Source of the DNA: an uncultured bacterium
Lineage (GTDB): Bacteria; Patescibacteriota; Minisyncoccia; Phycocordibacterales; PALSA-1337
Direction of reading: 5' to 3'
Length of the DNA stretch: 34,848 nucleotides
Assembly (NCBI GenBank): GCA_963701025.1
Contig: OY969557.1
Coordinates: 1 to 34,848 of the forward strand
Shown here: piece after piece, positions 3,990 through 34,096 of the stretch
Numbering within the stretch: the stretch's first letter is position 1
Layout of the letters: each line of letters opens with the position of its first letter
Made by a program: the position numbers and the translations under genes
The notes under the pieces: model-generated
What the model was told of the DNA's origin: nothing
Database searches by the model: none
The model's input: the letters and a program-made list of their open reading frames with translations, nothing else

Positions 3990-4085
3990 ATGTCTGGCAA
4001 AAATAAACCACTCGGGATTCGAACTAATTTATGAAAATTAAGAATCACTATATTTTAAGCCATGACTGAGGGGCGACCCGAGTGG

Positions 4086-6553: not shown

Positions 6554-7885
6554 TTAGACTGATTCTATGGTTACAACCTTCGCCGTTACCTTGATCTTCG
6601 ACTTAAAGCATCCCATGAGCTCGCGTTTTTCTTCGTTGGTGCCCTCGCATAGAATGTATTTGGCGTAAGTCTTGAGGTCGATGTCCTTATGCGTCGATTC
6701 CTGCTTCTTGATGCCGAGCACTCCTTTATGGAATTTGTTGTGGCGTTTCAACTCCTCCTCGAATTTATGCTGTATGCCGACATCGTTTAAGTCGATCTGA
6801 TCCATGATAGAGAGGAGCTGTTCAACTAACTCTTCCTCTCGTATGTACTGGCTTTTACAATGTCGGTCTTTCGATCTGCCGCATCCGTAGTAGATGTACT
6901 TGGCCACCGTGCCATCTTTCAACTGCTTGTACTTTTCCTCGGCTGATATGCTCGATCCGCAGAGGCCGCATACCATGAGCTTGGTGAAGGCGAACTCATG
7001 GCTTTGCCGTTCAATACCGTCCCGATGCATTTGTTCTTGTACTCTATCGAATAGCTCTTTTGACACGATCGGCTCATGTTTACCCTGATACCAGTTTCCA
7101 GACTTTTTCGGATACTCGAATGTGCCGTAATAGAAGGGATTTTGGAGAGTGCGGAATATATTACCTAGGGCCATATTGTGATTACCGATCGTCTTGAAGT
7201 TAAGATCGAATTTGAGCCAGTGATATATTTTTCGACCAGACCATTTTTCATCGGCCATTTTTTCGTACATCTTTTTTACGATCGGCGCCCGATCAAGATC
7301 GATGATTTTTTGGCATTTTTTGTCTATCAACTTCTGATCCAAGTATCCGACTGGAGCCATTCCTGGAAATAGCCCCATCTCTACTCTCGTTCTCAGTCCG
7401 CGCTTTACATTGATGCCTCGGTTATCATTCTCGAGCTTGGCCTGACTTCCTAGTATCATAAGGAGGAACTTTTCGTTAGGATTATTTCTGAAGCTCTGTC
7501 CATATGTCCTTATTTCCTGAAGCTTTCCGGCATCCATAAGGTCGACGATTTTACCAAGGTCACCGGCGTTGCGGCTGATCCTATCTGGTGCCCAGGTGAG
7601 AATGCCGTTGAACTTGCCTTGCCTGATTTCATCGACGATCTCATTGAAGACCGGCCTTTGCCCAGTCTCTTTAGCAGAGTGGCTTTCACGCTTCATTGTC
7701 ACGATCTCAAGTCCCTCACGTTCAGCTAGTTGGAGCATCTCCTTGATCTGGCTGTCGATGGAGAGGACTTGGCGTTCCTCTGATTCAGTACTTTTTCTCG
7801 CGTAGAGGCAGTATTTGACGGGTATGATTTCCGGGGCCTGCCTCGCTATTTGTCCCAGATTTACCCTTGTGGTTGCTTGTTGCAT
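6554..7885 (-). CDS. Large serine recombinase LSR1 (resolvase + recombinase + Zn-ribbon)
   Basis: YCLYARKST catalytic Ser, APDRISRN, CGLCG...YYGC Zn ribbon. Confidence 0.95.
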   Translation of the reverse strand: MQQATTRVNLGQIARQAPEIIPVKYCLYARKSTESEERQVLSIDSQIKEMLQLAEREGLEIVTMKRESHSAKETGQRPVFNEIVDEIRQGKFNGILTWAPDRISRNAGDLGKIVDLMDAGKLQEIRTYGQSFRNNPNEKFLLMILGSQAKLENDNRGINVKRGLRTRVEMGLFPGMAPVGYLDQKLIDKKCQKIIDLDRAPIVKKMYEKMADEKWSGRKIYHWLKFDLNFKTIGNHNMALGNIFRTLQNPFYYGTFEYPKKSGNWYQGKHEPIVSKELFDRVQEQMHRDGIERQSHEFAFTKLMVCGLCGSSISAEEKYKQLKDGTVAKYIYYGCGRSKDRHCKSQYIREEELVEQLLSIMDQIDLNDVGIQHKFEEELKRHNKFHKGVLGIKKQESTHKDIDLKTYAKYILCEGTNEEKRELMGCFKSKIKVTAKVVTIESV

Positions 7886-7914
7886 GTTTATATACCTTTT
7901 AGCCGGTATACCTC

Positions 7915-7976
7915 AAGGAATGACGCAGACCGCCCAAGGAGTCCAGAGCGTCCCGGGTGGCTATAAGTTGGTAACT
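7915..7976. repeat. Bipartite conserved site AAGGNATGACGCA-N37-39-GTTGGTAA, copy 1
   Basis: Also at 10766-10825 and 32321-32380; copies 1 and 3 share GACCGC..AAGGA(A)GTCCAGA and lie just upstream of LSR1 and LSR3. Confidence 0.7.
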
Positions 7977-8031
7977 AATGCTTCAAAATTCCCTTGAAAA
8001 TGCTAGAATTCAATATCACTCGTGCGATTTT

Positions 8032-10737
8032 ATGATTACCCTTAACGAAATCAGGAAACGGTCCGTCGCATTCGCCCATGAATGGGAACGAGAGTATAGC
8101 GAAGATGCGGAAGCAAAAAGCTTTTGGGATGGGTTTTTCAATGTCTTCGGCGTTTCTCGCAGGCGCGTAGCCACTTTTGAGTATCCGGTCAAAAAGTTAG
8201 ACGGTGGGCAGGGATATATTGATGTCATTTGGAAAGGCATTATGCTTGCTGAACATAAAACTCGTGGCAAAAGCCTGGATAAAGCATATGCTCAGGCCAG
8301 AGAGTATTTTCCCGGTTTGAAAGACCAAGAGCTTCCCCGATATATTGTCGTCTCCGATTTTGAAAAAATCCGCTTGTATGATTTGGAGACGAATAAACAT
8401 GAAGAATTTCTACTCAAAGATCTGCATAACTACGTAGACCTTTTCGGCTTTATTTCAGGCTACAGGGTTCAGGTATATGAAAAAGCAGAAGAAGCAAGCA
8501 TTGAGGCCGCTGAATTGATGGCTGATTTTCATAATGAGATAGCGAAGACGGGATATAGCGGACACGATCTTGAGGTCTTTCTCATCCGTATCCTTTTTTG
8601 TCTTTTTGCCGACAATACTGGTATTTTCCCAAAAAATCATTTCCGCGCGTATATAGAGAATAGGATCAACAAGGACGGTTCTGATCTCGGCATACATTTA
8701 TTGCAGATTTTCGATGTGCTCAATACGCCCAAGGAAAAGAGGCAGACGAATCTCGACGAGCAACTAATGGCATTTGACTATATCAACGGAGGCATCTTTG
8801 CTGAACGGATTAAGTCCGTATCGCTCGACGCGACCGCCCATCTCAAACTCATAAGGTGTTGTAAGTTCGATTGGTCGCAAATATCGGCGTCCATTTTCGG
8901 TTCATTGTTTCAAGGTGTCATGGACGAGAAAGCCCGTCGTCAGCTTGGTGCTCATTACACGTCGGAAATAAATATACTGAAGGTCATTCATCCACTTTTT
9001 CTCGATGAGCTTCACATCGAATTTGATCAGGTCAAATATGATTCCAAGAAACTTGATGCTTTCCATAAAAAGCTTTCACAGCTGACATTCCTCGATCCTG
9101 CATGCGGATGCGGAAATTTCCTCGTTATAGCGTATCGCGAGCTTCGCAAGCTTGAGATCGATATTCTACTTAAAAAGCGCACGACCAAAGACTCAAGTAT
9201 GCGGATATTCGGAGCCGATGAACTCTCGACGATAAATGTCAATCAATTCTACGGTATCGAGATCGAAGAATTTCCGGCTCTTGTCGCCCGTGTCGCGATG
9301 TATCTCGTCGATCATCAAATGAACCAATTGCTCTCTGAGAAGTTCGGCGAAATATACGCACGTATTCCTCTGCGGGAACCCGCAACGATCATCAACGCGG
9401 ATGCTTTGACTACTGATTGGGAAAAAGTTGTCTCGAAAGGTAAACTCTCATATATTCTCGGTAATCCGCCTTTTGTCGGCGCGCGCCTCATGGAGAAAAA
9501 ACAAAAGGAGATTTTCTTGAGCCTCTTTGATGATGCAAAAGGGGCTGGTAATCTTGATTTTGTTACCGCATGGTATGAGAAAGCGGCTCGATATATGGGG
9601 GGCACGCATATCAAGACCGCCTTCGTGTCCACAAACTCTATCTGCCAGGGTGAGCAGGTCGCCATTCTCTGGAAAAGATTGAAAGAAAAATATGCTGTAA
9701 CGATTCACTTCGCGCATGAGACGTTCAAATGGAATAACGACGCACCCGGCGTCGCCGCAGTCTATTGTGTTATTGTTGGCTTCGCTTGTTTTGATACTCC
9801 GAAAAAGTATCTCTATGAATACGAGACTATAAAAAGCGAGCCAAAAGAAAAAGAAGTCTCGCACATAAATGCGTATCTTGTCGCCGGTGGCGATGTGTTT
9901 ATAGAAAACAGACGAACTCCAGTATCTTCGGTGCCAGAAATCGTGTTTGGAAGCATGCCCAACGATGGAGGCAATTTTCTTTTTACTGAAAGCGAGAAAG
10001 ACGAGTTTCTAGAAGCGGAGCCAGGTGCAAAAGCCTTTATGAAAGAACTCATCAGTGCGAAAGAATATCTGAACGGCGAAAAACGTTATTGCTTGTGGCT
10101 CAAAGATATTGAGCCGAAAGCTTTGAAGGGACTGCCAAAGGTTTTGGAACGAGTGGAGAATATCAAAAGACTACGGGCTGAAAGCACTCGCAAAGAAACA
10201 CAGGAATTGGCACATTACCCGACTCTTTTTGGTGAGATACGTCAACCAGATAGTGACTATATTGCAATCCCCCGTGTCAGCTCAGAAAACAGGGTGTATA
10301 TTCCAATGAGTTTTTTCGATAAAGAAAAGATCGTCGGAGATACATGCCTTGCTGTTCCAAACGCTACACTGTATGACTTTGGTATTCTCCAATCTCTGAT
10401 GCATATGACGTGGGTATCGTATGTGTGTGGGAGGCTAAAGAGTGATTACCGTTACTCGAATACACTCGTCTACAATAATTTTCCTTGGCCGGAAAATGTG
10501 TCCGACGAACACAAGAAAAAAGTCGAGGAATATGCACAAAAAGTCCTCGATGTTCGTCTACAATCTTCACATAGCTCTCTCGCTGATTTATATGATCCAA
10601 ACACGATGCCACCGGAGCTTGTTAAAGCACACACTGATCTCGATAGGACGGTGGACGCGTGCTACGAAAAAAAGTTTTTAAACAAAGAGACCCGAATCGA
10701 ATTTTTATTCTGGTTGTATAAGGAATTGACTAAGTAA
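8032..10737 (+). CDS. MmeI-family (type IIL/IIG) fused restriction endonuclease-N6A methyltransferase
   Basis: N-terminal IDVIW..LAEHK PD-(D/E)xK, GAHYT, LDPACGCGNFL, GNPPF, C-terminal RYSNTLVYNNFPWP; start ATG 8032. Confidence 0.92.
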   Translation: MITLNEIRKRSVAFAHEWEREYSEDAEAKSFWDGFFNVFGVSRRRVATFEYPVKKLDGGQGYIDVIWKGIMLAEHKTRGKSLDKAYAQAREYFPGLKDQELPRYIVVSDFEKIRLYDLETNKHEEFLLKDLHNYVDLFGFISGYRVQVYEKAEEASIEAAELMADFHNEIAKTGYSGHDLEVFLIRILFCLFADNTGIFPKNHFRAYIENRINKDGSDLGIHLLQIFDVLNTPKEKRQTNLDEQLMAFDYINGGIFAERIKSVSLDATAHLKLIRCCKFDWSQISASIFGSLFQGVMDEKARRQLGAHYTSEINILKVIHPLFLDELHIEFDQVKYDSKKLDAFHKKLSQLTFLDPACGCGNFLVIAYRELRKLEIDILLKKRTTKDSSMRIFGADELSTINVNQFYGIEIEEFPALVARVAMYLVDHQMNQLLSEKFGEIYARIPLREPATIINADALTTDWEKVVSKGKLSYILGNPPFVGARLMEKKQKEIFLSLFDDAKGAGNLDFVTAWYEKAARYMGGTHIKTAFVSTNSICQGEQVAILWKRLKEKYAVTIHFAHETFKWNNDAPGVAAVYCVIVGFACFDTPKKYLYEYETIKSEPKEKEVSHINAYLVAGGDVFIENRRTPVSSVPEIVFGSMPNDGGNFLFTESEKDEFLEAEPGAKAFMKELISAKEYLNGEKRYCLWLKDIEPKALKGLPKVLERVENIKRLRAESTRKETQELAHYPTLFGEIRQPDSDYIAIPRVSSENRVYIPMSFFDKEKIVGDTCLAVPNATLYDFGILQSLMHMTWVSYVCGRLKSDYRYSNTLVYNNFPWPENVSDEHKKKVEEYAQKVLDVRLQSSHSSLADLYDPNTMPPELVKAHTDLDRTVDACYEKKFLNKETRIEFLFWLYKELTK

Positions 10738-10765
10738 ACCTGACTTTACTTTAAAAATAATGATA

Positions 10766-10825
10766 AAGGTATGACGCAACTCGTCTTAGAAGCCTAGGGC
10801 GTCCGAATAACTCAAGGTTGGTAAT
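10766..10825. repeat. Bipartite site, degenerate copy 2 (downstream of the MmeI-like gene)
   Basis: AAGGTATGACGCA at 10766-10778 and GTTGGTAAT at 10817, spacing matching the other copies. Confidence 0.55.
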
Positions 10826-10882
10826 CATATCGACACAGTCGACCAATTTTATGGCTAATTCTCTTAATTCGAGCTCATTTAT

Positions 10883-10919
10883 GGGCGGAAAACAAGCTGT
10901 TGGTAACTCGGCTTCGCAA
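10883..10919. repeat. Right-arm copy GGGCGG...GTTGGTAACTCGGCTTCGCAA
   Basis: Matches GTTGGTAACTGGGCTTCGCAA at 32371-32391 except one base. Confidence 0.65.
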
Positions 10920-11024
10920 AAGGCCTTGTCTAAGCTAGGGTACTGACTAAAGCTCTTTTTTGCGCTATTATTGCCTTACAACTGAATATTAGTAGTTGAC
11001 CTAACCCTTGCGGACTTTCTGTGA

Positions 11025-11165
11025 GGCATGGTCGAAAATCCCGCTAGAGATCAAAGGACTCCTCGTCAGAGTCACTCTAGCGGGTCATACCGGGAAACTG
11101 GTATGGGCAGGGCCGAAAGGTTTTGTCGCGATGGCGAGGAGTCTTTTGACGTTCCAAGACTCCCA
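11025..11165 (+). ncRNA. Candidate structured leader RNA M1, copy 1
   Basis: 10-bp stem 11040-49/11075-84, CATACCGG-GAAA-CTGGTATG, second GAAA hairpin; same layout with different stem sequence at 32465-32582. Confidence 0.6.
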
Positions 11166-11189
11166 CCGTTTAAAACCCGCTAGAGTTTT

Positions 11190-11876
11190 ATGAAAAACTT
11201 CACAAATTTTCTGAATGAAGAGAAAATTAAAGATAACATAGCTTCTTTTGAGAAAGATCATCACCCACTATCGCGTGGCGCCTCGTTTGATTATTGCTTC
11301 AATTATTTTCAAGAATTTACAGACAAGAAAAAAATTGCCAGTAAAGACAATATACAAAAAAGTTGTCTCCACCTGGCTTTTTATTTAGCCAGTTGGGGGA
11401 TGTTAAGAAATTCATTCTTATTACAAAAAAGTATGAAGTATTTTGAACCACTTATGGAATATTTTTCAACAGATGATTGCGACGTCTGGAATATAGACGT
11501 GGATAAATACGATGAAGAAAATATCATTAAATTAACTGAATGCTACGGGAAAATAAAAGATATTTTATTGAAAGGAGAGGACAAAAGACATGAAATGGGT
11601 ACTTTGGTAACAAAAATAATGTTAGGTGTATTTGGCAATGTACCAGCGTTTGATGCGTATTTCAGGAATGGTTTCGGATTTGGTACCTTTAATAAAAAAT
11701 CACTCGTTCACATTAGTGAATTTTATAAGAATGGTAACTACCCAAGACTTATCTCTGATGAAGCAAATAGAATTAAGACTTTTGATTATGATAGTGGAAA
11801 ATCAACCGATAGATCATACACCAGAGCAAAGATAGTAGACGCGATATTTTTTATAGAAGGATTTAATAAACAATAA
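11190..11876 (+). CDS. Conserved hypothetical protein (possible HhH-glycosylase-like fold)
   Basis: Clean 228-aa ORF; LAFYLASWGM and TLVTKIMLGVFGNVPAFD motifs; fold call is inference. Confidence 0.6.
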   Translation: MKNFTNFLNEEKIKDNIASFEKDHHPLSRGASFDYCFNYFQEFTDKKKIASKDNIQKSCLHLAFYLASWGMLRNSFLLQKSMKYFEPLMEYFSTDDCDVWNIDVDKYDEENIIKLTECYGKIKDILLKGEDKRHEMGTLVTKIMLGVFGNVPAFDAYFRNGFGFGTFNKKSLVHISEFYKNGNYPRLISDEANRIKTFDYDSGKSTDRSYTRAKIVDAIFFIEGFNKQ

Positions 11877-13495: not shown

Positions 13496-14767
13496 CTATT
13501 TTTGCTCCTGCGGCGGTGCCACAGGCCTGTTCTGATAGCTCTTTTTTGCTTCCGCAAGTACCCTTGATATTTCCTCCCTCGGCGGATCTTTCCGATCGAG
13601 ATCGGTAAACTGGATGCCGCGTTCCTTGTACCATCCGAAGAGCCAATCGTAGAAGTAGGTGGTCATATGCTTGTATCCCTCAGCGCTTGTAAGGGGCCAC
13701 AGAAGATCGACGTTGCCATAATAGCGTTGATAGGAGTCATCGGCGATCGTGAAGTGCGTCCGTGGAGTGTCGATCGGCACGGATATGACGAACGGCTCCA
13801 TTTGCGCGATGAGGGGAGTTTGGTATATCACTTTTTCCGGCCTGTATCTAGGCTCCCGTCCTTCGAGTATATAGGGGTTGCTGTCGTCATCATCACGACC
13901 ATCGCGGTGCCAACCCAAGATCTTCAGCAGAAACTCTCGGGTCCATACTCCTCGGGTGAAATGTCCCCTCATCCTTTCGATACTGTCGAGATCAGGAAAC
14001 CGCTCCGGCCAGAGAATGCGCCGCTCGTCGTCGAGGAGGGGGTACGCTCGAAAGATGCCGGATAGACCTTTTTCGTCAATCTTTTTCTTGAGTCTCATAA
14101 GGAGCGAATCAGGACAGATGAGATTGCCGAGGACAACGATCCGCGTTCCCTTGCTTCCAAGCGGCAAGACCTCGCTCGTCAGCCTCTGCCAGGCGGTGTT
14201 GCGGTTCGCTTCATCCTTGGCTGTCGAGGTGTCCTCGATGTCATCGCAGATGATGAGGTCAGGACGGATCGTGCCGTACTTGAGGCCGCGGATGCTCTGC
14301 TCAAGCGACACCGATTGAATCTTCGATTCGTGATACACGAGATCGAGCGACATCTTTTTCCATTCAGCCTCGTTGTCGCTGAAGGGTCCGAAGTCCGCCC
14401 GCAGGAGTTCGTTCGAGAGAAGCTCGTCACGGATACTCGTGAAGTGACTCTTGGCCTGATCCTGCGTCTGGCTGACGATGACTGCGAACTTCTTTTGTGG
14501 CTTGCCGAGGATAGACCAGAGAATGTTGCCGGTATTCATGATTGTGGACTTGCCGGATTCCCTGAATGCCATGACGGCGATGAGCTGATGTGACGGGTTT
14601 TTCAAGATGTGGCCCATCTCGCGATGGAAGGGAGCCAGGGGATGCGAGAGGTGGTGCCGCAGATAGATGAGGCAGAACCAAAGAGGATCCTCGTAGGCAA
14701 AGCGCTTCCGTAAGTTCTGGTCGGCGAGCACTCGCTTCAGTTTTTCAAGGTCAAAATCATTCGGCAT
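13496..14767 (-). CDS. Terminase large subunit-like ATPase; nuclease domain not recognisable
   Basis: AFRESGKST Walker A, LIICDDIE Walker B, VVLGN motif III, LWPERF; C-terminal part unlike an RNase H domain. Confidence 0.75.
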   Translation of the reverse strand: MPNDFDLEKLKRVLADQNLRKRFAYEDPLWFCLIYLRHHLSHPLAPFHREMGHILKNPSHQLIAVMAFRESGKSTIMNTGNILWSILGKPQKKFAVIVSQTQDQAKSHFTSIRDELLSNELLRADFGPFSDNEAEWKKMSLDLVYHESKIQSVSLEQSIRGLKYGTIRPDLIICDDIEDTSTAKDEANRNTAWQRLTSEVLPLGSKGTRIVVLGNLICPDSLLMRLKKKIDEKGLSGIFRAYPLLDDERRILWPERFPDLDSIERMRGHFTRGVWTREFLLKILGWHRDGRDDDDSNPYILEGREPRYRPEKVIYQTPLIAQMEPFVISVPIDTPRTHFTIADDSYQRYYGNVDLLWPLTSAEGYKHMTTYFYDWLFGWYKERGIQFTDLDRKDPPREEISRVLAEAKKSYQNRPVAPPQEQK

Positions 14768-15185
14768 GGTTGGTTGGGACGGAAGGACTTCCGCCGGGAG
14801 CTAGGAATTCTTTGAAGAGCTTTTCCTCCTCCGGAGTCAGTTCAGGCACGCCTGTGGCTGGTCTGCGCACATTCTTGCCGCCGTAGCGCGGATGATTGTG
14901 TTTGAGCCAGAGGGCAATAGCCGGTAGTTTGCCTTCCTTTATGAGCTGGATCACCTGGGCTTCGCTCATGTCGTTAATGAATTCGACGCCCTGACTGAGC
15001 GCATCATCGCTGTCACGACGGAATTCGTTGTCTTCGCGTCGCCAGCGATAGTAGGTGTCGCGGGAGACCCCTGCTCGCTTGCAGGCGGCCATGACAATAG
15101 GCAACTCTCTGAGCGTGTCGACGAGCTTTTGCTTGTCATCCTTCAAGCGTTTATCGATCGTCTTTTGATAGGTGTCCTTAGTCAT
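14757..15185 (-). CDS. HTH protein, terminase small subunit-like
   Basis: IVMAACKRAGVSRDTYYRW HTH then helical oligomerisation region; overlaps the TerL-like start. Confidence 0.7.
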   Translation of the reverse strand: MTKDTYQKTIDKRLKDDKQKLVDTLRELPIVMAACKRAGVSRDTYYRWRREDNEFRRDSDDALSQGVEFINDMSEAQVIQLIKEGKLPAIALWLKHNHPRYGGKNVRRPATGVPELTPEEEKLFKEFLAPGGSPSVPTNHAE

Positions 15186-16524
15186 CGATTTTCTTGGCTT
15201 TTAGGCCGGTCGCTTTTTCCCAACGATTTCTGATGACCTCGGCGTAGACGGGTGACTTTTCCATGATAAAGCATCGGCGATTCATCTTGGTTGCGGCGAT
15301 GAGCGTCGATCCGCTTCCGCCAAAGGGTTCAAGGATGAGGTCGCCACGCTTCGTCAGGACCTTAAGATAAGGGATGAGGAGCTCAATCGGCTTCGTTCCG
15401 AAGATGATCTCCTGGCCGGACGATTTCTTGTCAGCGGCAGTGTGAGTGATATGATCAGTAGGGCAGATTTTCTTGCCCTTTTCATATTTTTCCCAGTGTG
15501 GCTTGCCGGATGTGGCGAATATAGCGTTCTCGTATTCATTTTGGAGAAGCTCATCGGATTCGGGCTCGAGGTTGAGAGCGACGTCACCGCCAGTACCGAC
15601 AAGAGCGATGTCGGTTTTATTGAAGAACTTGTACTTGGCCGAGAAGTCCTGCATTCGGTTCGGCACATGCCAGGTGATGGTGTTGCGATACTTCCAATGC
15701 TTCTCGAGCTCGTTCCAAATGATGCGGAGGTTCTTCGGATTCTCGAAGATGATGATCGAGAAGTCGGGTTTCTGTACCTTGGCTACGTTCGCCATCCATT
15801 TCTCCGTGAAGTCTGGCGGCAGGACGTCGGTCTCAAGGTACCGGCGATCGTGTTTGGCTCCGAATCCTGTGACGGCGTCGCCCTGCTTCTTTTTACCCTT
15901 TAGGTAGTCAAGGATATACGGGGGATCCGTGAAAACCATGTCGGCCTTTTCATCGCCCATAAGCCGAAGCATATCTGCCTCAACGGTCGAGTCGCCGCAG
16001 GCCAGGCGGGAATCGCCGAGCGCCCATACGTCGCTTTTCTTTATTTCGATCTCGTCTATCTTGAGCTTTTTAAGCTCCTTCTCAAGATCGAATTGCTCCG
16101 GAGTCTCCTCGACGGCGAAGATCTCGTCGAGGTCTTCCGAGCTGAATCCGGCCGTCGAAAGGAATGTCTCGTCGAAAGTGGCGAGGAGATCCCAATCCCA
16201 TTCGCCGACATTTTTGTTTAAGCGGATGTTGAGTTCCTTCTCCTTCTCGATATCTGGAATGTTGATATATACGACGGGTACTTCCTTGATGCCGAGCTCC
16301 TTTATAACGGAGAGACGGAAGTGGCCGCCTATAACGATGCCCTTGCGTTCCGGCGCGGAGTTGACGAGGAGAGGGTCGACGATGCCGTACTTACTGATGC
16401 TTTCTTTGAGATCCTTAGCCGCCTCGGTACTCCAAGTTCTAGGGTTATAGGACGCGGCTTTTAGATTTGTAACGGGGACGTATTCTACGCACAAACGAGT
16501 GTCTGCGGTTGGTTTGCTTTTCAT
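15178..16524 (-). CDS. ParB-like domain fused to N4C/N6A DNA methyltransferase
   Basis: YNPR...VIGGHFRL ParB-like; FTDPPY motif IV, TKP, LEPFGGSGST motif I. Confidence 0.88.
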   Translation of the reverse strand: MKSKPTADTRLCVEYVPVTNLKAASYNPRTWSTEAAKDLKESISKYGIVDPLLVNSAPERKGIVIGGHFRLSVIKELGIKEVPVVYINIPDIEKEKELNIRLNKNVGEWDWDLLATFDETFLSTAGFSSEDLDEIFAVEETPEQFDLEKELKKLKIDEIEIKKSDVWALGDSRLACGDSTVEADMLRLMGDEKADMVFTDPPYILDYLKGKKKQGDAVTGFGAKHDRRYLETDVLPPDFTEKWMANVAKVQKPDFSIIIFENPKNLRIIWNELEKHWKYRNTITWHVPNRMQDFSAKYKFFNKTDIALVGTGGDVALNLEPESDELLQNEYENAIFATSGKPHWEKYEKGKKICPTDHITHTAADKKSSGQEIIFGTKPIELLIPYLKVLTKRGDLILEPFGGSGSTLIAATKMNRRCFIMEKSPVYAEVIRNRWEKATGLKAKKIDD

Positions 16525-17263: not shown

Positions 17264-18841
17264 TCACGGGTACTTAACCCGACTAGCCCGCAAATTCGCA
17301 AAAAGCGCGAAATCGCTCGAAAAAGGCGAAAGAGAAATACCAAGTGGAGGGCGGGGCGGAATTCCCCCCTGAAACCCCCCTTCCGCCCCGCCCGCATTTT
17401 TGTTGACCGTTTGGGGAATTGCGGGAACAAATGCGAAGGGTGCGCGGGGCGAAAAAACGAGGGTGCGGTCGCGTATGACAAAGTTCGAACCGACTTTTTG
17501 GAAAAAAGATCGGATTTTAGTAGGATCACCCTCATCTGCCACAAACTTGGCTTGCTTACTCGCTTCCAGGAAATTTTTCACTGGTTCGAACCGATTTGTT
17601 GAAACCTGTGCCAAAGATGCTAATTTGTCGTTCAGAGCATGTTTTTCAGTCACCAGTTTGTTTTTGGCATTTTGATATTCTGGAAGCGTTAGAGCGTTCT
17701 CTAGGTATGCTGTCATGAGTTTGTCGAGCTTCGAATCGACGATGGTAATTTCTGCATTCACTTTATCAGTCTCATTTTTCAGAAGTTTATCATTTTCAGA
17801 TCTATCTTTTTCATTTTCAATTATTAGCCAATCAGCTACCTCGTCAGCCAGGGAGTATTTTTTCAGTTCCGTTTGCATTTGCGAAGTGATGACCTCCTCA
17901 CGAACGTATTTTTGATTGCAAACTCCTTTTCGTTTTGTGCATCGCAAATAATTATGACCTTTTTGTGTTTCTGTGGTTATGAAGCAACCGCATTCACCGC
18001 AATGGAATAGGCCTCTGTAGTCATAAGATTTCAGTTCTGACGTTTTAGGTTTGCTTTTTCTGGTCATAACCTCTTGAACATCGTCAAAAAGCTTTTTCGA
18101 GATAATAGGTTCATGCTTACCTTCATAAAATTCTCCACCATATCGAATAAGTCCATGGTAAAAGGGATTTTTCAAAAGATATTGATAGTTGGAAATAGAA
18201 AGCACGCCATCGCCAGTGCCTTTTAGACCAAGATCATTGATTTTTCTCCTGACCTGGGCGAATGTGAAATTGCCAGTGGCATATGCCTCAAAAGTCTTTT
18301 TCACGAGTATGGATTTTACCGGATCAACGACGATAGTTTTTATCTTTTTATCATTCAAATATCCCAGTGGTGCTTTTTGAGGCCATATTCCATTCTTCAA
18401 TTTCTGTCTGTGTCCGCGTTTGATGTTCTCTGACAAGTTGTCTACATAATATTTACTCTGGCCAAAGGAGATTGAAAGCATAAATTTTCCCTGCGGAGTT
18501 GCATCAAACCAGAACGTCGGGAATTTCAGATCAGTGATCTTGCCAATATCCACAAGGTAAATGACACGACCACCATCAATGGAGTTACGAGCGAGTCTGT
18601 CAGGGTGCCATGCGAGGATGCCGGAGGCCTCACCGGCTTCTATGCGGTCCAACATTTCAGCGAAAATAGGCCTGCCAGGTACTTTGGCGGTTTGTTTCTC
18701 TATAAAAGTATCGACAACATCAATTTTTTCCTTTCTAGCGAGCTCACGCAGTTCTGCCAACTGGTCAGGCAGGCTTCTGATTTGATGATCTTTGTCATCA
18801 GTCGATTTTCTGGCGTAAATAAAATATTTTTTATCACTCAT
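17264..18841 (-). CDS. Large serine recombinase LSR2 with coiled-coil insertion
   Basis: YFIYARKST, HPDRLARN, CGECG...YLRC Zn ribbon, coiled coil; its 3' end spans the predicted crossover. Confidence 0.95.
   Translation of the reverse strand: MSDKKYFIYARKSTDDKDHQIRSLPDQLAELRELARKEKIDVVDTFIEKQTAKVPGRPIFAEMLDRIEAGEASGILAWHPDRLARNSIDGGRVIYLVDIGKITDLKFPTFWFDATPQGKFMLSISFGQSKYYVDNLSENIKRGHRQKLKNGIWPQKAPLGYLNDKKIKTIVVDPVKSILVKKTFEAYATGNFTFAQVRRKINDLGLKGTGDGVLSISNYQYLLKNPFYHGLIRYGGEFYEGKHEPIISKKLFDDVQEVMTRKSKPKTSELKSYDYRGLFHCGECGCFITTETQKGHNYLRCTKRKGVCNQKYVREEVITSQMQTELKKYSLADEVADWLIIENEKDRSENDKLLKNETDKVNAEITIVDSKLDKLMTAYLENALTLPEYQNAKNKLVTEKHALNDKLASLAQVSTNRFEPVKNFLEASKQAKFVADEGDPTKIRSFFQKVGSNFVIRDRTLVFSPRAPFAFVPAIPQTVNKNAGGAEGGFQGGIPPRPPLGISLSPFSSDFALFANLRASRVKYP
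17293..17474 (-). repeat. Arm A (182 bp), inverted copy of 19123-19304
   Basis: Core-proximal ~120 bp identical; about 9 substitutions in the distal ~60 bp (manual alignment). Confidence 0.9.
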
Positions 18842-18907
18842 GAATATATTTTACCAAATTTTTGTAAAGTCAAACAGATGTTCATAACTTTTTTCACTAA
18901 ACTCTAT

Positions 18908-19070
18908 CGAGAAGCGGTCGACTTCCGCTTTTAGCTACAAGTCCCGAGCGGATGTCGGTGCGGCGAAGCACCCAGCGGTCGCTCCAAGCGACGGCTGGGG
19001 TTTTCGTGCGGAGCCGTTCGGACATCCGCGTAAAAATATCGTTAAAGCGGAAGTGGGCCGCTTCGACTCA
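18908..19070 (+). other. Long branched hairpin M2, copy 1
   Basis: Outer 21-bp stem GAAGCGGTCGACTTCCGCTTT/AAAGCGGAAGTGGGCCGCTTC; compensatory changes relative to 29067-29231. Confidence 0.7.
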
Positions 19071-19122
19071 CTTCTTGTAATTTAATTTTTATAAAAAATT
19101 ATATTTCATTTCCTTCCCCTCC

Positions 19123-19360
19123 ACGCGACCGCGCCCTCGTTTTTTTGCCTCGCGCGCCTTTTGCATTTGTCCCCGAAATTCCCAAAACGGTCAACAAAAA
19201 TGCGGGCGGGGCGGAAGGGGGGTTTCAGGGGGGAATTCCGCCCCGCCCTCCACTTGGTATTTCTCTTTCGCCTTTTTCGAGCGATTTCGCGCTTTTTGCG
19301 AATTTGCGGCAGTTTTTACTTGAAGTTCGAACATTTTTTATGGAAAATCCTCATAATTGA
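19123..19360 (+). pseudogene. 3' remnant of an LSR2-like gene in unrecombined form
   Basis: Translates as PRAPFAFVP...LFANLRQFLLEVRTFFMENPHN*; matches the LSR2 tail up to LR; no upstream recombinase body. Confidence 0.6.
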
Positions 19361-19503
19361 AGTGAAAGAAAATGGTGTCGCTCCGCGACGCTGTTTTCTT
19401 GTGGGGTTGCGCCTTCGCTCCGCTCGGCGCGTGGAGAGGGCGTGCGCGGCAGGAGGGGTGTGGGGAGGAATGCCGCGCCGCCCTGCTGATTTTTTCGCGC
19501 GGG
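19123..19503 (+). repeat. Joined A-core-B (attP-like) copy, inverted relative to the element ends
   Basis: A 19123-19304, TGCGG 19305-19309, B 19310-19503. Confidence 0.85.
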
Positions 19504-29044: not shown

Positions 29045-29066
29045 TAGATTTCTTTCTTCTTTCAAC

Positions 29067-29231
29067 CGAGAAACGGTCGACTTCCGCTTCTCACCACGAG
29101 TTCTGAGCGGATGTTTGTGCGGCGTAGCACTGCACGGTCGCCTCGGGCGACGGTGCAGGTTTCCGTGCGAAGCCGTTCTGACATCCGCGTAATGACTTTA
29201 TCTGAAGCGGAAGTGGGCCGCTTCGAGTCAC
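29067..29231 (+). other. Long branched hairpin M2, copy 2
   Basis: Covarying copy of 18908-19070. Confidence 0.7.
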
Positions 29232-29322: not shown

Positions 29323-29516
29323 CCCGCGCGAAAAAATCAGCAGGGCGGCGCGGCATTCCTCCCCACACCCCTCCTGCCGCGCACGCCCTCTCCACGCGCC
29401 GAGCGGAGCGAAGGCGCAACCCCACAAGAAAACAGCGTCGCGGAGCGACACCATTTTCTTTCACTTCAATTATGAGGATTTTCCATAAAAAATGTTCGAA
29501 CTTCAAGTAAAAACTG
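29323..29516 (-). repeat. Arm B (194 bp), inverted copy of 19310-19503
   Basis: No difference seen by eye; the ORF track gives identical translations in both places. Confidence 0.9.
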
Positions 29517-29579
29517 CCGCACTTAGGTTTTATTATCGGACTATGTCGAGGCCTTGATAAATAGGCCTTGTTTGGAATC

Positions 29580-29621
29580 GTTCGAATCCCTCAAAGATTC
29601 ACCCTCTAGTGGGATTCGAAC
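29580..29621. repeat. GTTCGAATCCC/GGGATTCGAAC palindrome, copy 2
   Basis: Same arms as 43-82, different loop. Confidence 0.8.
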
Positions 29622-30985: not shown

Positions 30986-32303
30986 TTACACCACCTCCAC
31001 CACTCCCTTCGTGATCTTGAGTTTCGAGCGGAAGCATCCCATAAGCTCGCGCTTCTCCTCGTTCGTGCCCTCCTTGAGGATGTATTTCGCGTAGGTCTTG
31101 ATGTCCACTTCCTCGTGCGATGCGCCTGGTTTGCCGAGTCCGAGCACCGTGCGTTGGAATTTGTTGAAGCGCTTGAGCTCGTCCTCGAACTTGTAGCGGA
31201 TGCCGTGCTCGTTGAATTCGAGCTTGCCCAGAAGACCAGTTAGCTGTTCGATCAGCACTTCCTCGCGCAAATATTTGTTACCTCTGCAATTTTTGTCGCG
31301 GGTGCGCCCGCAGCCGTAGTACACATATCTTGCGGTCGTGCCGTCTTTCAGTTGCTTGTATTTCTCCTCGGCCGATATGCACGATCCGCATGCTCCGCAG
31401 GTCATCAGTTTCGTGAAGGCGAACTCGTGGCTTTCTCGCTGGATACCGTCGCGCTTGAGCCGCGCTTGTACTTTGTCGAAGAGCTCTTGTGTCACGAGTG
31501 GCTCATGCTTGCCCTGATACCAGTTGCCGCTCTTCTTCGGGAACTCGAAGATGCCGTGATAGAAGGGATTTTGAAGAGTTCGATATACATTGCCGAGGGA
31601 AAGCGGCTTGTTGCCGGTCGTGTGGAAGTTGAGCTCGAAGCGGAGCCAGTGGTATACCTTCCGACCAGACCATTCCTCGTGTGCCACTTTCTCGAACATC
31701 TTCTTGATGACATGTCCTCGCTCGGGGTCGATGATCACCTGGCTCTTGCGATCGGCGATCCGCTGATTCAGGTATCCGGTCGGAGCGGTGCCGGGCCGGT
31801 ATCCCATCTCGCATCGCGTTCGCAGTCCGCGCTTCACGTTGATACCTCGGTTGTCGTTCTCGAACTTCGCCTGCGATCCGAGAATCATCAAGAGGAATTT
31901 CTCGTTCGGGTTATTGCGAAAACTTCTGCCCGTACGTCCGGATCTCGAGAAGCTTTCCAGCGTCCATGAGGTCGACGATCTTGCCGAGGTCACCTGCGTT
32001 ACGGCTGATGCGGTCCGGCGCCCACGTGAGGATGCCGTTATACTTCTCATCCTTGATCTCCTCGACAATCTCGTTGAAGATCGGCCGTTGGCCGGTCTCC
32101 TTGGCCGAGTGCGACTCTCGCTTCATGGCCACGATCTCCAAGTCCTCGCGCTCGGCGAGCTGGAGCATCTCCTTTACCTGGCTGTCTATGGAGAGGACTT
32201 GGCGTTCCTCCGATTCCGTCGATTTTCTGGCATAAAGGCAGTATTTCACCTTTACGGGGCTTGCCGGTTTGGGTCCAGGCCCCAACGGCCCTTGTGATTG
32301 CAT
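30986..32303 (-). CDS. Large serine recombinase LSR3, paralog of LSR1, one +1 frameshift near 31915-31925
   Basis: KYCLYARKSTESEERQVLSIDSQ in one frame, FRNNPNEKFLLMILGSQAK...CGACG in the next; collinear with LSR1. Confidence 0.9.
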
Positions 32304-32320
32304 ATGTGTCATACAGCTAC

Positions 32321-32391
32321 AAGGGATGACGCAGACCGCTAAGGAAGTCCAGATCCTTTGAAAGGGCGGAGTTGGTAACTGGGCTTCGCAA
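32321..32391. repeat. Bipartite site copy 3 with GGCTTCGCAA right arm
   Basis: Matches 7915-7976 and 10899-10919. Confidence 0.7.
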
Positions 32392-32464
32392 TCACTTGCT
32401 TTTATGGTACAGTTTCGACACAACCGAATATGTGAAAAGTAGCCTAAACCCTCGAGAAATCGGC

Positions 32465-32582
32465 GGCATGGCGAAAAACCAGTAACGGATAGAGAACCCA
32501 TCATATGGGGTCACCGTTACTGGTCATATCGGGAAACTGGTATGGGTGCCGCAAGGCATCACCCATGTGGTGGGCTTTGTGT
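32465..32582 (+). ncRNA. Candidate structured leader RNA M1, copy 2
   Basis: 11-bp stem 32478-88/32514-24, CATATCGG-GAAA-CTGGTATG, GTGCC-GCAA-GGCAT. Confidence 0.6.
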
Positions 32583-32643
32583 TAGCACTACGCGGGGTTC
32601 GGGAGTATAATTTAGTCACGTTATTATTAGATAATAAATAATC

Positions 32644-34096
32644 ATGAAAAAATATCTTATATTCACTTCTCATCCCGCTTACAGGGTTGTCGCTCATGTT
32701 ATCAGTAGCGACTCCCGTATCTGCTCAAACTGAGACCGCTTCACCGTTGTGCTACACATTCACGAAAAATCTTGGTGAAGGCAGGCCGATAAGCTCGGCT
32801 GATTCACAGGCCCTGACCGTAGCTCTTATCAACGCCGGTGTCTGGAACCAGGAATCTCCGATCACGACCTATAACGACACTGTCGCTTCTGCGGTCTCGG
32901 GATTCCAAGAAAAATACTCTGCGCAAATCCTTACTCCGAATGGCTTGTCCTACGGAACTGGATTTGTCGGTGCTTCAACCCGAGCAGAATTAAATAGCCT
33001 TTATGGAGAATGCTCGAATCCTGCTCAGCCGGCTCAACCGATCTCATCGACACAATGCCCAGCGGGATATACCTGTACTCCGGTAAATCAAAATCCTGCT
33101 CCGGTTTGTCCTCCTGGCTGGACTTGTGTGCCCGCTGGATCTACACCTTCAACTCCTATCACATCTTCCGGTGCTACAACTGTATCGTTGACTCTCGATC
33201 CGTCATCTCCCTTGACTGGTCAGACGAGCCAAACCTCCGCCATACCGGTACTTGTCTTCGACCTTAATCCTCAAAATGGAGTAGCGGCTCTCACGAGAAT
33301 CAACGCTAACATAGTTACGAGCGGAACAGGAAGCGTTACCACGGCATACCTCTATGCAAATGGCGGCTTGCTCGCAACCGCTTCTGTTCAGAATGGCATG
33401 GCGTCCTTCACGAATGTCTTCAAGCAGATGTCAGCGAATACTTACCAGGCTTACACGATTAAAGTTGATACCGCTAACACTAGCGGACTTACAATTGCGG
33501 CTTCCGTAAATACCACTTCGGGATATGGAATCGTCAATGCAACAGGAGTCAATATGGCATTGACCGGATCAGCGACGGGATATCCGATTATGATTGGTGG
33601 AAATCCTGGCTCTCCAATCACCTCGCCTATCTCTCCAGTTTCGACTGCTACCGAATCGGCATCATTGACTCTCGATCCGTCATCGCCTCTTGCCGGTCCG
33701 GTGTATCAGAATACTTCCGTACCTGTGCTCGTGTTTGATTTGAACTCGAACACGTTGGCTGATCTCCAAACTCTAGGCGTTCAGCTTTCTACGAGCGGAT
33801 CAGGTAACGTCACAATGGCTTACCTCTCTCAAGGAGGAAAGAACATTGCAACGACGACAGTGAGCGGTAATACGATCCAGTTCAACCAAATCAACGTAAC
33901 GCCTATGAATGCGAATACGTACTACCCATTCATGGTCAAAGTTGATACCACTAATCCACAAAATCTGATGGTGACAGCTTCGGTCAATCAGGGTAATGCT
34001 AGGGTTCTCGATTCGACAGGTGTGTTCATGAATGTGAACGGACAGGCGTCTGGTTATCCGATTACAGTCACCGGTGCAAGCGGACCTAGTTATTAG
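32644..34096 (+). CDS. Surface protein: signal peptide, peptidoglycan-binding-like domain, two Ig-like repeats (+1 frameshift at 32662)
   Basis: Deleting one T gives MKKYLISLLIPLTGLSLMLSVATPVSA; VSGFQEKY..GFVGASTRAELN PG-binding-like; SLTLDPSSPL.G..VLVFDL repeated twice. Confidence 0.8.

Follow-up and report, generated by a model that had tools for sequence, protein, structure and literature searches.

LOOT RNA in phage-like elements of Patescibacteria: a pseudoknotted orphan RNA that may act as a switchable leader

Two structured RNA elements lie on the plus strand of a 34,848-nucleotide (nt) stretch of DNA from an uncultured bacterium of the Patescibacteriota (GenBank assembly GCA_963701025.1, contig OY969557.1, positions 1 to 34,848 of the forward strand), the whole of which we call the window. 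A preliminary description, drawn from the letters of the DNA, had taken them for an unrecognised motif present twice. They are not new. A scan of the window with Rfam 15 gives exactly two matches above threshold, and both are the LOOT RNA, RF03000. The gathering score, the curated threshold for membership of this family, is 46.4 bits; both copies lie far above it and cover model positions 1-121 of 121, untruncated:

10998-11127, plus strand: LOOT RNA copy 1, Rfam core (P0, P1, P3, P4, P5); cmscan match to RF03000, 81.0 bits, E = 6e-14
32441-32560, plus strand: LOOT RNA copy 2, Rfam core; cmscan match to RF03000, 91.9 bits, E = 1.7e-16

Both elements are new members of an already catalogued orphan family. 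The preliminary description had itself named a match to a known Rfam family as the result that would speak against it, and this is what cmscan returned. A new RNA class is ruled out, the motif having been present in Rfam since release 14. Another match in the scan, to His_leader and below threshold, is merely a terminator hairpin. LOOT originates in the survey of Weinberg et al. (2017; NAR 45:10811, PMC5737381), and the Rfam 14 paper presents it as a 'metagenomic-based RNA' (PMC7779021). Its Rfam type is 'Gene; sRNA'. Our search of the literature found no paper on LOOT function.

In other respects the preliminary description holds well. The strings that it quoted are all present where it placed them, in both copies, and its structural claim of a plus-strand RNA with covarying stems and GNRA loops is borne out by the covariance model, by folding and by G-U pairs. 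Its coordinates fell in the right region but were too narrow, leaving out about 27 nt on the 5′ side as well as the 3′ tail. What was missed at the 5′ side is the hairpin P0/P1, part of the Rfam match, with its internal loop CCUAA.../...GCAUGG. There follows a common block, GGCATGG(T)CGAAAA, which reads GGCATGGTCGAAAA at 11025 in copy 1 and GGCATGGCGAAAAA at 32465 in copy 2. It leads into P3, a helix of 10 base pairs (bp) that joins CCCGCTAGAG (11040-11049) to CTCTAGCGGG (11075-11084) in copy 1, and CCAGTAACGG (32479-32488) to CCGTTACTGG (32514-32523) in copy 2: the sequence is wholly different between the copies, yet the pairing is kept in each. The next hairpin, P4 (CATAYCGG-GAAA-CTGGTATG), is the same in both, while P5 is capped by a GNRA loop, GAAA in copy 1 and GCAA in copy 2. 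A conserved 3′ tail then carries the RNA to about 11149 in copy 1 and about 32574 in copy 2. This resemblance of the two copies is far beyond chance. Each bears the hallmarks of RF03000, namely six helices and the conserved CCUAA, GCAUGG, AAAA and GU...GAAA...G, and when the window copies are aligned to the consensus, non-standard pairs are flagged in the apex of P3 only. Folding z-scores were -5.5, -5.75 and -4.25, with none of 200 shuffles equally stable.

Relatives were found by scanning one genome per GTDB species for the exact pattern of the P4 hairpin. At least 119 species-level genomes or loci carry it, almost all of them metagenome-assembled genomes of Patescibacteria (Candidate Phyla Radiation, CPR), and some of the loci sit on contigs of 0.8-0.9 Mb. 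Nearly all the loci listed with this pattern show the full LOOT architecture; all 18 of those sampled for comparison exceed the RF03000 gathering score, at 67-89 bits. In IMG/VR only five contigs carry the P4 pattern, and a 5′ pattern (CCTAAMCC...GGCATGG...AAAANC) gave nine matches in viral contigs, one being a true LOOT. The GTDB genomes contain no exact copy of the copy 1 tail of the window. This occurrence fits a family seen in uncultured or metagenomic sequence only.

Removal of duplicates left a comparison set of 105 distinct LOOT sequences, nearly all from Patescibacteria/CPR. Statistics on structure were made on a 42-sequence MAFFT alignment. Over the whole structure 85.5% of cells are paired against 71.6% after shuffling, 32 pairs have changed on both sides, and none of 500 shuffles reaches the observed values. 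P0, P1 and P4 are paired at 89-100% across these relatives; in the inner part of P3 and in P5, which MAFFT mis-registers, low pairing percentages are alignment artefacts. The conserved core comprises P0/P1 with its internal loop, an A-rich junction, P3, the invariant GAAA-capped P4, and P5.

A long-range contact within this core is conceivable. The 11-nt receptor of the GAAA tetraloop (CCUAAG...UAUGG) occurs in group I and group II introns and in RNase P. The P0/P1 loop of LOOT, CCUAA(A/C)...(G/A)(C/U)AUGG, has the look of such a receptor in its CCUAA/(U/C)AUGG strands, and P4 offers an invariant GAAA loop that might dock into it. The likeness has its limits: LOOT has CAUGG or AUAUGG in place of UAUGG, beside a G-U pair.

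A further helix lies beyond the Rfam model, which ends after P5 and draws the apex of P3 as a local hairpin. All relatives run past P5 into a tail, CUGGCGGGGAGC-UUUKUGUU, whose sequence complements the P3 apical loop. In the 42-sequence alignment the helix so formed counts 16 pairs, 13 of them with changes on both sides, and 91.9% of its cells are paired; controls in which the partner was slid bring pairing down to 34-49%. The full set of 105 sequences gives 92.4% pairing for this helix, and 77.5% when shuffled. Rfam's local apical hairpin, which overlaps this helix, is just 68.8% paired. One pair of the helix is U-G in 37 of 42 sequences; U-G and G-U pairs being abundant, the plus strand is therefore the RNA strand. 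The window copies have tail sequences unrelated to each other, and each pairs with its own P3 loop:

11051-11068, plus strand: copy 1, 5′ strand of the pseudoknot in the P3 apical loop, TCAAAGGACTCCTCGTCA; 18 contiguous pairs with 11132-11149
11132-11149, plus strand: copy 1, 3′ strand of the pseudoknot in the U-rich tail, TGGCGAGGAGTCTTTTGA; beyond the Rfam model
32497-32509, plus strand: copy 2, 5′ strand of the pseudoknot, CCCATCATATGGG; 13 contiguous pairs with 32562-32574, G-U included
32562-32574, plus strand: copy 2, 3′ strand of the pseudoknot, CCCATGTGGTGGG, followed by CTTTGTGTT; pairs with its own P3 loop

At the level of sequence comparison, the P3 apical loop and the U-rich 3′ tail are shown to form a pseudoknot. 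The hairpin with a 7-nt loop that had been described within P3 takes on another meaning here: its complementary strings do exist, but they are mostly the 5′ strand of this pseudoknot, whose partner in the tail had escaped notice. How much of the helix forms at a time may vary. When a copy 1 transcript is ended at 11152, its nested minimum-energy fold has the full loop-tail helix with P3 open. As 18 bp exceed what a loop closed by P3 readily holds, the helix would form either in part, as a pseudoknot, or in full, with P3 open.

LOOT stands just before a gene. In 104 of 105 loci the tail is followed, at no more than 220 nt, by the start of a co-directional open reading frame (ORF) of at least 40 aa; the median distance is 47.5 nt. 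An N-terminal hydrophobic segment is present in 74% of these downstream ORFs, against 21% of the other ORFs of the same loci. Beyond this the products have little in common. Searches by phmmer with the window's downstream proteins found essentially no homologues in other LOOT loci, and the window's downstream ORFs (228, 359, 153 and 466 aa) have no match in Pfam, PHROGs or PADLOC; a common downstream gene family is rejected on these searches. Judged from their sequences, the genes that LOOT would regulate are diverse and mostly code for exported or membrane proteins, in phage-like CPR elements beside a recombinase insertion site. The first such gene in the window is this:

11190-11876, plus strand: first gene 3′ of copy 1; 228 aa, no family match

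A further feature is found at the start of this next gene. In 51 of 122 loci the 5′ strand of P3, together with the AAAAC that precedes it, is repeated exactly (at least 8 nt) directly before the downstream ATG, and the repeat changes along with P3 from locus to locus. At 9 or more identities in 11 positions, 46% of loci have a copy of the P3 5′ strand, as do 2.4% of mismatched controls; in 42 of 48 loci it ends 0-4 nt 5′ of the ATG. A wobble-aware duplex between the 3′ strand of P3 and the start region (-25 to +20) reaches a score of at least 20 in 41% of loci, compared with 0.3% of controls. No terminator separates LOOT from the ORF in 46 of 48 loci of this start-codon type. The relevant segments of the window are as follows:

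11075-11084, plus strand: copy 1, 3′ strand of P3, CTCTAGCGGG, predicted to be switchable; pairs with 11040-11049 or, with A11074 added, with 11176-11186
11172-11186, plus strand: copy 1, second 'AAAAC + P3 5′ strand', AAAACCCGCTAGAGT; 11 nt identical to the P3 5′ strand, with their end 3 nt short of the ATG at 11190
11156-11163, plus strand: copy 1, AAGACTCC; can pair with GGAGTCTT of the tail in an alternative local hairpin
32702-32710, plus strand: copy 2, TCAGTAGCG, a tentative assignment; lies 4 nt beyond the ATG (32696) and complements the P3 3′ strand at 32515-32523

In copy 1 the minimum-energy fold of 10998-11210 pairs 11074-11084 with the start-codon copy and so occludes the start, in a fold that encloses P4, P5 and the tail hairpin (11139-11146 with 11156-11163). 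The duplex of copy 2 is weaker, with 9 bp, two of them G-U, and a score of 20, which places it in the class attained by 41% of loci and 0.3% of controls. A sub-lineage of about nine loci (for example L089, L104 and L109) does otherwise. There, a segment in the 5′ half of the tail, AGCTGGCG, complements CGCCAGCT, and the latter doubles as the 5′ half of a canonical terminator with its U-run. Read from sequence, this is a terminator/antiterminator arrangement. The terminator type accounts for about 16% of loci.

A promoter-like region precedes the RNA. A conserved TTCGCA stands 17 nt from a TAnnnT hexamer 5′ of LOOT loci, and a conserved ACAAYTGAATA box lies 10-20 nt before P0, in most loci 6-8 nt 3′ of the TAnnnT hexamer. 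Many loci, copy 1 included, have a second, extended -10 (TGnTAnnAT) nearer to LOOT, 6-8 nt before the ACAAYTGAATA box. These sequences suggest promoter function and a start site 5′ of the LOOT copies. In the window they appear thus:

10899-10919, no strand assigned: 5′ of copy 1, the 9-mer GTTGGTAAC, an exact repeat, then a -35-like TTCGCA; the site that had been described as recombinase-linked
10943-10988, plus strand: 5′ of copy 1, promoter-like CTGACT, 17 nt, TATTAT, then the box ACAACTGAATA (10978-10988); likely transcript start
32371-32430, plus strand: 5′ of copy 2, GTTGGTAAC (32371-32379), TTCGCA (32385-32390), extended -10 TGGTACAGT (32405-32413), box ACAACCGAATA (32420-32430)

A short hairpin is seen between the TTCGCA and ACAAY boxes in L025, L009, L109, L108, L082 and other loci. 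Its 3′ strand overlaps the proximal -10-like hexamer, and it shows compensatory changes (ATACC/GGTAT against ATAGC/GCTAT); it may be part of a LOOT leader that is longer because its transcription begins at the distal promoter.

What, then, might LOOT do? We lean, by a little, towards a cis-acting, riboswitch-like leader, in which the fold made of P3 and the pseudoknot would vie with alternative pairings, ones that cover the start codon or govern a terminator. LOOT would be the 5′ leader of the next gene and a conformational switch in cis. The 3′ strand of P3 would exchange its own 5′ strand for the copy at the start codon in some 40-45% of loci, and in one sub-lineage the tail would pair alternatively with the 5′ half of the terminator; formation of P3 and the pseudoknot would in this way decide on access to the start codon or on termination of transcription. 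A small molecule, a protein or the kinetics of folding could be the trigger, and the switch could be on or off. There is a parallel. The add adenine riboswitch of Vibrio vulnificus is translational, a strand of its helix swapping to the start region. LOOT likewise has a conserved folded domain in a presumed 5′ untranslated region and a closing-helix strand with a potential second partner over the start region; as with translational riboswitches, the presumed sensor would be coupled to translation in some lineages and to a terminator in others. LOOT differs in that its domain is larger, about 150 nt with a long pseudoknot, that its downstream genes form no single functional family, and that no ligand is known.

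Several observations weigh against a cis-acting switch. We know of no ligand or protein partner of LOOT, and the downstream proteins are mutually non-homologous, an uncommon situation for a riboswitch. Neither the start-codon nor the terminator type is seen in about 38% of loci. Among the 48 start-codon-type loci, the minimum-energy fold keeps the normal P3 in 35 and adopts the alternative in nine, the two P3 pairings being nearly equal in energy; a start-occluding fold as the general thermodynamic ground state is unsupported by these counts. Enrichment of the hairpin between the tail and the downstream sequence is modest (24% against 8.5% at a score of at least 20), and this weakens the case for such a hairpin as a general feature. 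A promoter-like site (32582-32611) lies between LOOT copy 2 and its ORF. Finally, the pseudoknot helix with its U-rich tract could itself be a terminator that frees a small RNA, in keeping with the 'sRNA' label of Rfam.

This last point opens onto the main rival reading, which we hold to be unlikely: LOOT as a free, trans-acting small RNA, derived from a leader and released at the pseudoknot and U-tract, whose variable P3 and tail strands would pair with the start regions of messenger RNAs of the same or related elements, giving element-specific immunity. Mobile elements do carry such RNAs. The c4 antisense RNA of phages P1 and P7 and the CI RNA of P4 (Rfam C4, RF01695) are each located just upstream of, and co-directional with, a gene whose start region they complement. 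LOOT shares with them its place on a mobile element, in the same orientation and position relative to a gene whose start region it complements, and a conserved scaffold on which the specificity sequences differ between related elements. The Rfam type agrees with this reading, as do the G+C-rich tail helix, followed by the terminator-like CUUUKUGUU, the element-specific and co-varying complementarity to the downstream start region, P3 and tail sequences that are orthogonal between the window copies, the promoter-like site that separates copy 2 from its ORF, and the phage-like context. In the c4/CI RNAs, however, the complementary strand lies in loops, and that of LOOT is held within a helix of 10-11 bp once the RNA has folded; its target is on the same strand and only 40-120 nt further 3′, mostly without a classical terminator to separate them; and LOOT lacks the sequence and structure of C4, with no Rfam C4 match in the window at E-values up to 1.

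It is quite improbable, in our estimate, that the downstream repeats are incidental and that LOOT has a structural or catalytic role of another kind, be it as a self-cleaving ribozyme, as a multimer-forming RNA or in relation to packaging. The ornate fold invites the thought, with its tetraloop-receptor-like motif, invariant P4 and long pseudoknot; loop-tail complementarity of up to 18 nt also strains a single closed hairpin loop and may leave room for intermolecular pairing, and terminase genes are nearby. Yet these genes are on the opposite strand and absent from most loci, no ribozyme family of Rfam matches, and the start-codon copy is too precisely placed and tracks P3 too well for coincidence.

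The neighbourhood of LOOT has the features of a mobile element. Three large serine recombinase (LSR) genes are present in the window, LSR1 (6554-7885), LSR2 (17264-18841) and LSR3 (30986-32504), and both LOOT copies come after a site that adjoins an LSR gene, as the preliminary description had said. Those nearest to the RNAs, with the gene inserted before copy 1, are these:

6554-7885, minus strand: LSR1, with Pfam Resolvase, Recombinase and Zn_ribbon_recom; divergent from copy 1, a type IIG gene in between
7978-10737, plus strand: MmeI-like type IIG restriction-modification gene, with Pfam MmeI domains; PADLOC REase_MTase_IIG, 1180 bits; between LSR1 and copy 1
30986-32504, minus strand: LSR3, divergent from copy 2; domains divided over two overlapping ORFs by a frameshift

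LSR1 and LSR3 share about 75% nucleotide identity, with a change of register by 1 nt near 31924/31925, and LSR3 would be either a frameshifted pseudogene or an assembly error. The MmeI-like gene is bracketed by the 9-mer and by a second LSR-proximal arm (7914-7976 matching 10765-10826). The 9-mer, of which the window has two exact copies against none expected, adjoins the LOOT promoter upstream. The same layout, LSR, arm, 9-mer, cargo, 9-mer and LOOT, recurs in loci L045, L108 and L117, where the cargo is defence-like: AAA_13; AAA_21/AAA_15; and two D12 methylases with an HNH protein. A 9-mer-bracketed insertion between recombinase and LOOT is seen at 7914-10907 of the window and in L045, L108, L117 and L051. 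The 9-mer is probably the crossover region of the recombinase, and the segment that it brackets may be a cargo hotspot served by this enzyme.

Over the relatives, 34 loci have 5 kb of upstream sequence, and 17 of these have an LSR gene there, on the opposite strand. Downstream, also on the opposite strand, homologues of a small terminase (TerS) and of a ParB-methyltransferase accompany LOOT in 17 of the 40 loci with 5 kb of sequence on that side, the large terminase (TerL) in 13 of 40. At least one of the LSR, terminase and ParB-methyltransferase genes is present in 77 of 117 loci. With such neighbours, LOOT therefore belongs to a phage-like mobile element. In the window (13496-16524, minus strand) and in many other loci, a ParB-N6/N4 methyltransferase, a small terminase-like helix-turn-helix protein and a large terminase converge on LOOT. 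Since the terminase of the window is not followed by genes for a portal or a capsid, the element resembles a satellite or a remnant more than a complete prophage.

Proximity to a recombinase brings to mind guide RNAs. The bridge RNA of IS110/IS621 is encoded next to its recombinase, a DEDD enzyme, and guides it. By analogy, and as the preliminary description implied, LOOT could work with the neighbouring LSR as a guide, a scaffold or a directionality factor at the 9-mer site. It is a structured non-coding RNA beside a recombinase gene and a recombination site; the divergent LSR upstream in half of the loci is a geometry far from random; the 9-mer brackets inserted defence genes directly upstream of the LOOT promoter; and LSR1 with copy 1 and LSR3 with copy 2 make paired paralogous modules. 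We nevertheless regard this partnership as highly improbable. The neighbour of LOOT belongs to the large serine recombinases and not to the DEDD enzymes, and serine recombinases select their sites via protein domains. No loops complementary to target or donor DNA are present in LOOT: the median length of the longest match is 6 nt, whether a LOOT is compared with its own site or with that of another locus, and the 9-mer occurs in none of 38 LOOTs. Pairing within the RNA and with the region downstream suffices to explain the variable helices of LOOT, and the other half of the loci with 5 kb upstream have no LSR. A recombinase guide RNA is rejected on these two counts, complementarity to the site that does not go beyond mismatched controls and an adjacency that is not obligate. 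We see in the LSR link synteny within a mobile element, and found nothing to indicate that the two work together.

The window has other repeats. A perfect 199-nt inverted repeat (19305-19503 and 29323-29521) brackets 9.8 kb of restriction-modification and defence genes: a PDC-S57-like gene, an EcoRI methylase with a type II endonuclease, a PD-Lambda-5-like gene and a D12 methylase. Either an invertible segment or an artefact of assembly could account for it. Beside the repeat, the 3′ end of LSR2 recurs in inverted form at 95% (17288-17474 against 19123-19309). Another repeat, of about 170 nt (18903-19071 and 29062-29231, 79-96% identity), has an internal inverted repeat, GAAGCGGTCGACTTCCGCTT...AAGCGGAAGTGGGCCGCTTC, and one of its copies is directly upstream of LSR2; it has no match in Rfam and may be a further recombination site or a further RNA. 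Fragments resembling the T-arm of tRNA, GGGATTCGAAC, occur at 29-82, 4014-4038 and 29580-29600. ARAGORN found no tRNA and no tmRNA in the window, and tRNA genes are present near several LOOT loci of other genomes; the fragments may be remnants of integration at tRNA genes.

Returning to the switchable leader, a more specific version of it can be put forward, tentatively and with the odds against it. LOOT would be the sensor of a riboswitch-like class not characterised before and restricted to the mobile elements of CPR/Patescibacteria. A ligand, or a factor of phage or host, would stabilise P3 and the pseudoknot, and would thereby set the translation or termination of exported 'moron' proteins encoded beside the site of the recombinase at which defence genes are inserted.

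As the discovery of a new RNA class the finding fails. What the follow-up gives to the orphan LOOT is a testable biology, that of what appears to be a pseudoknotted leader with a partner swap at the start codon, in phage-like elements of CPR bacteria. As a possible cargo hotspot, the arrangement of LSR, 9-mer and defence genes may be interesting in its own right. If the reading as a leader is confirmed, the Rfam model would be corrected by addition of the missing 3′ strand, and its type would become cis-regulatory instead of sRNA. LOOT would then be one of the few regulatory RNAs known from the hard-to-culture bacteria of the CPR.

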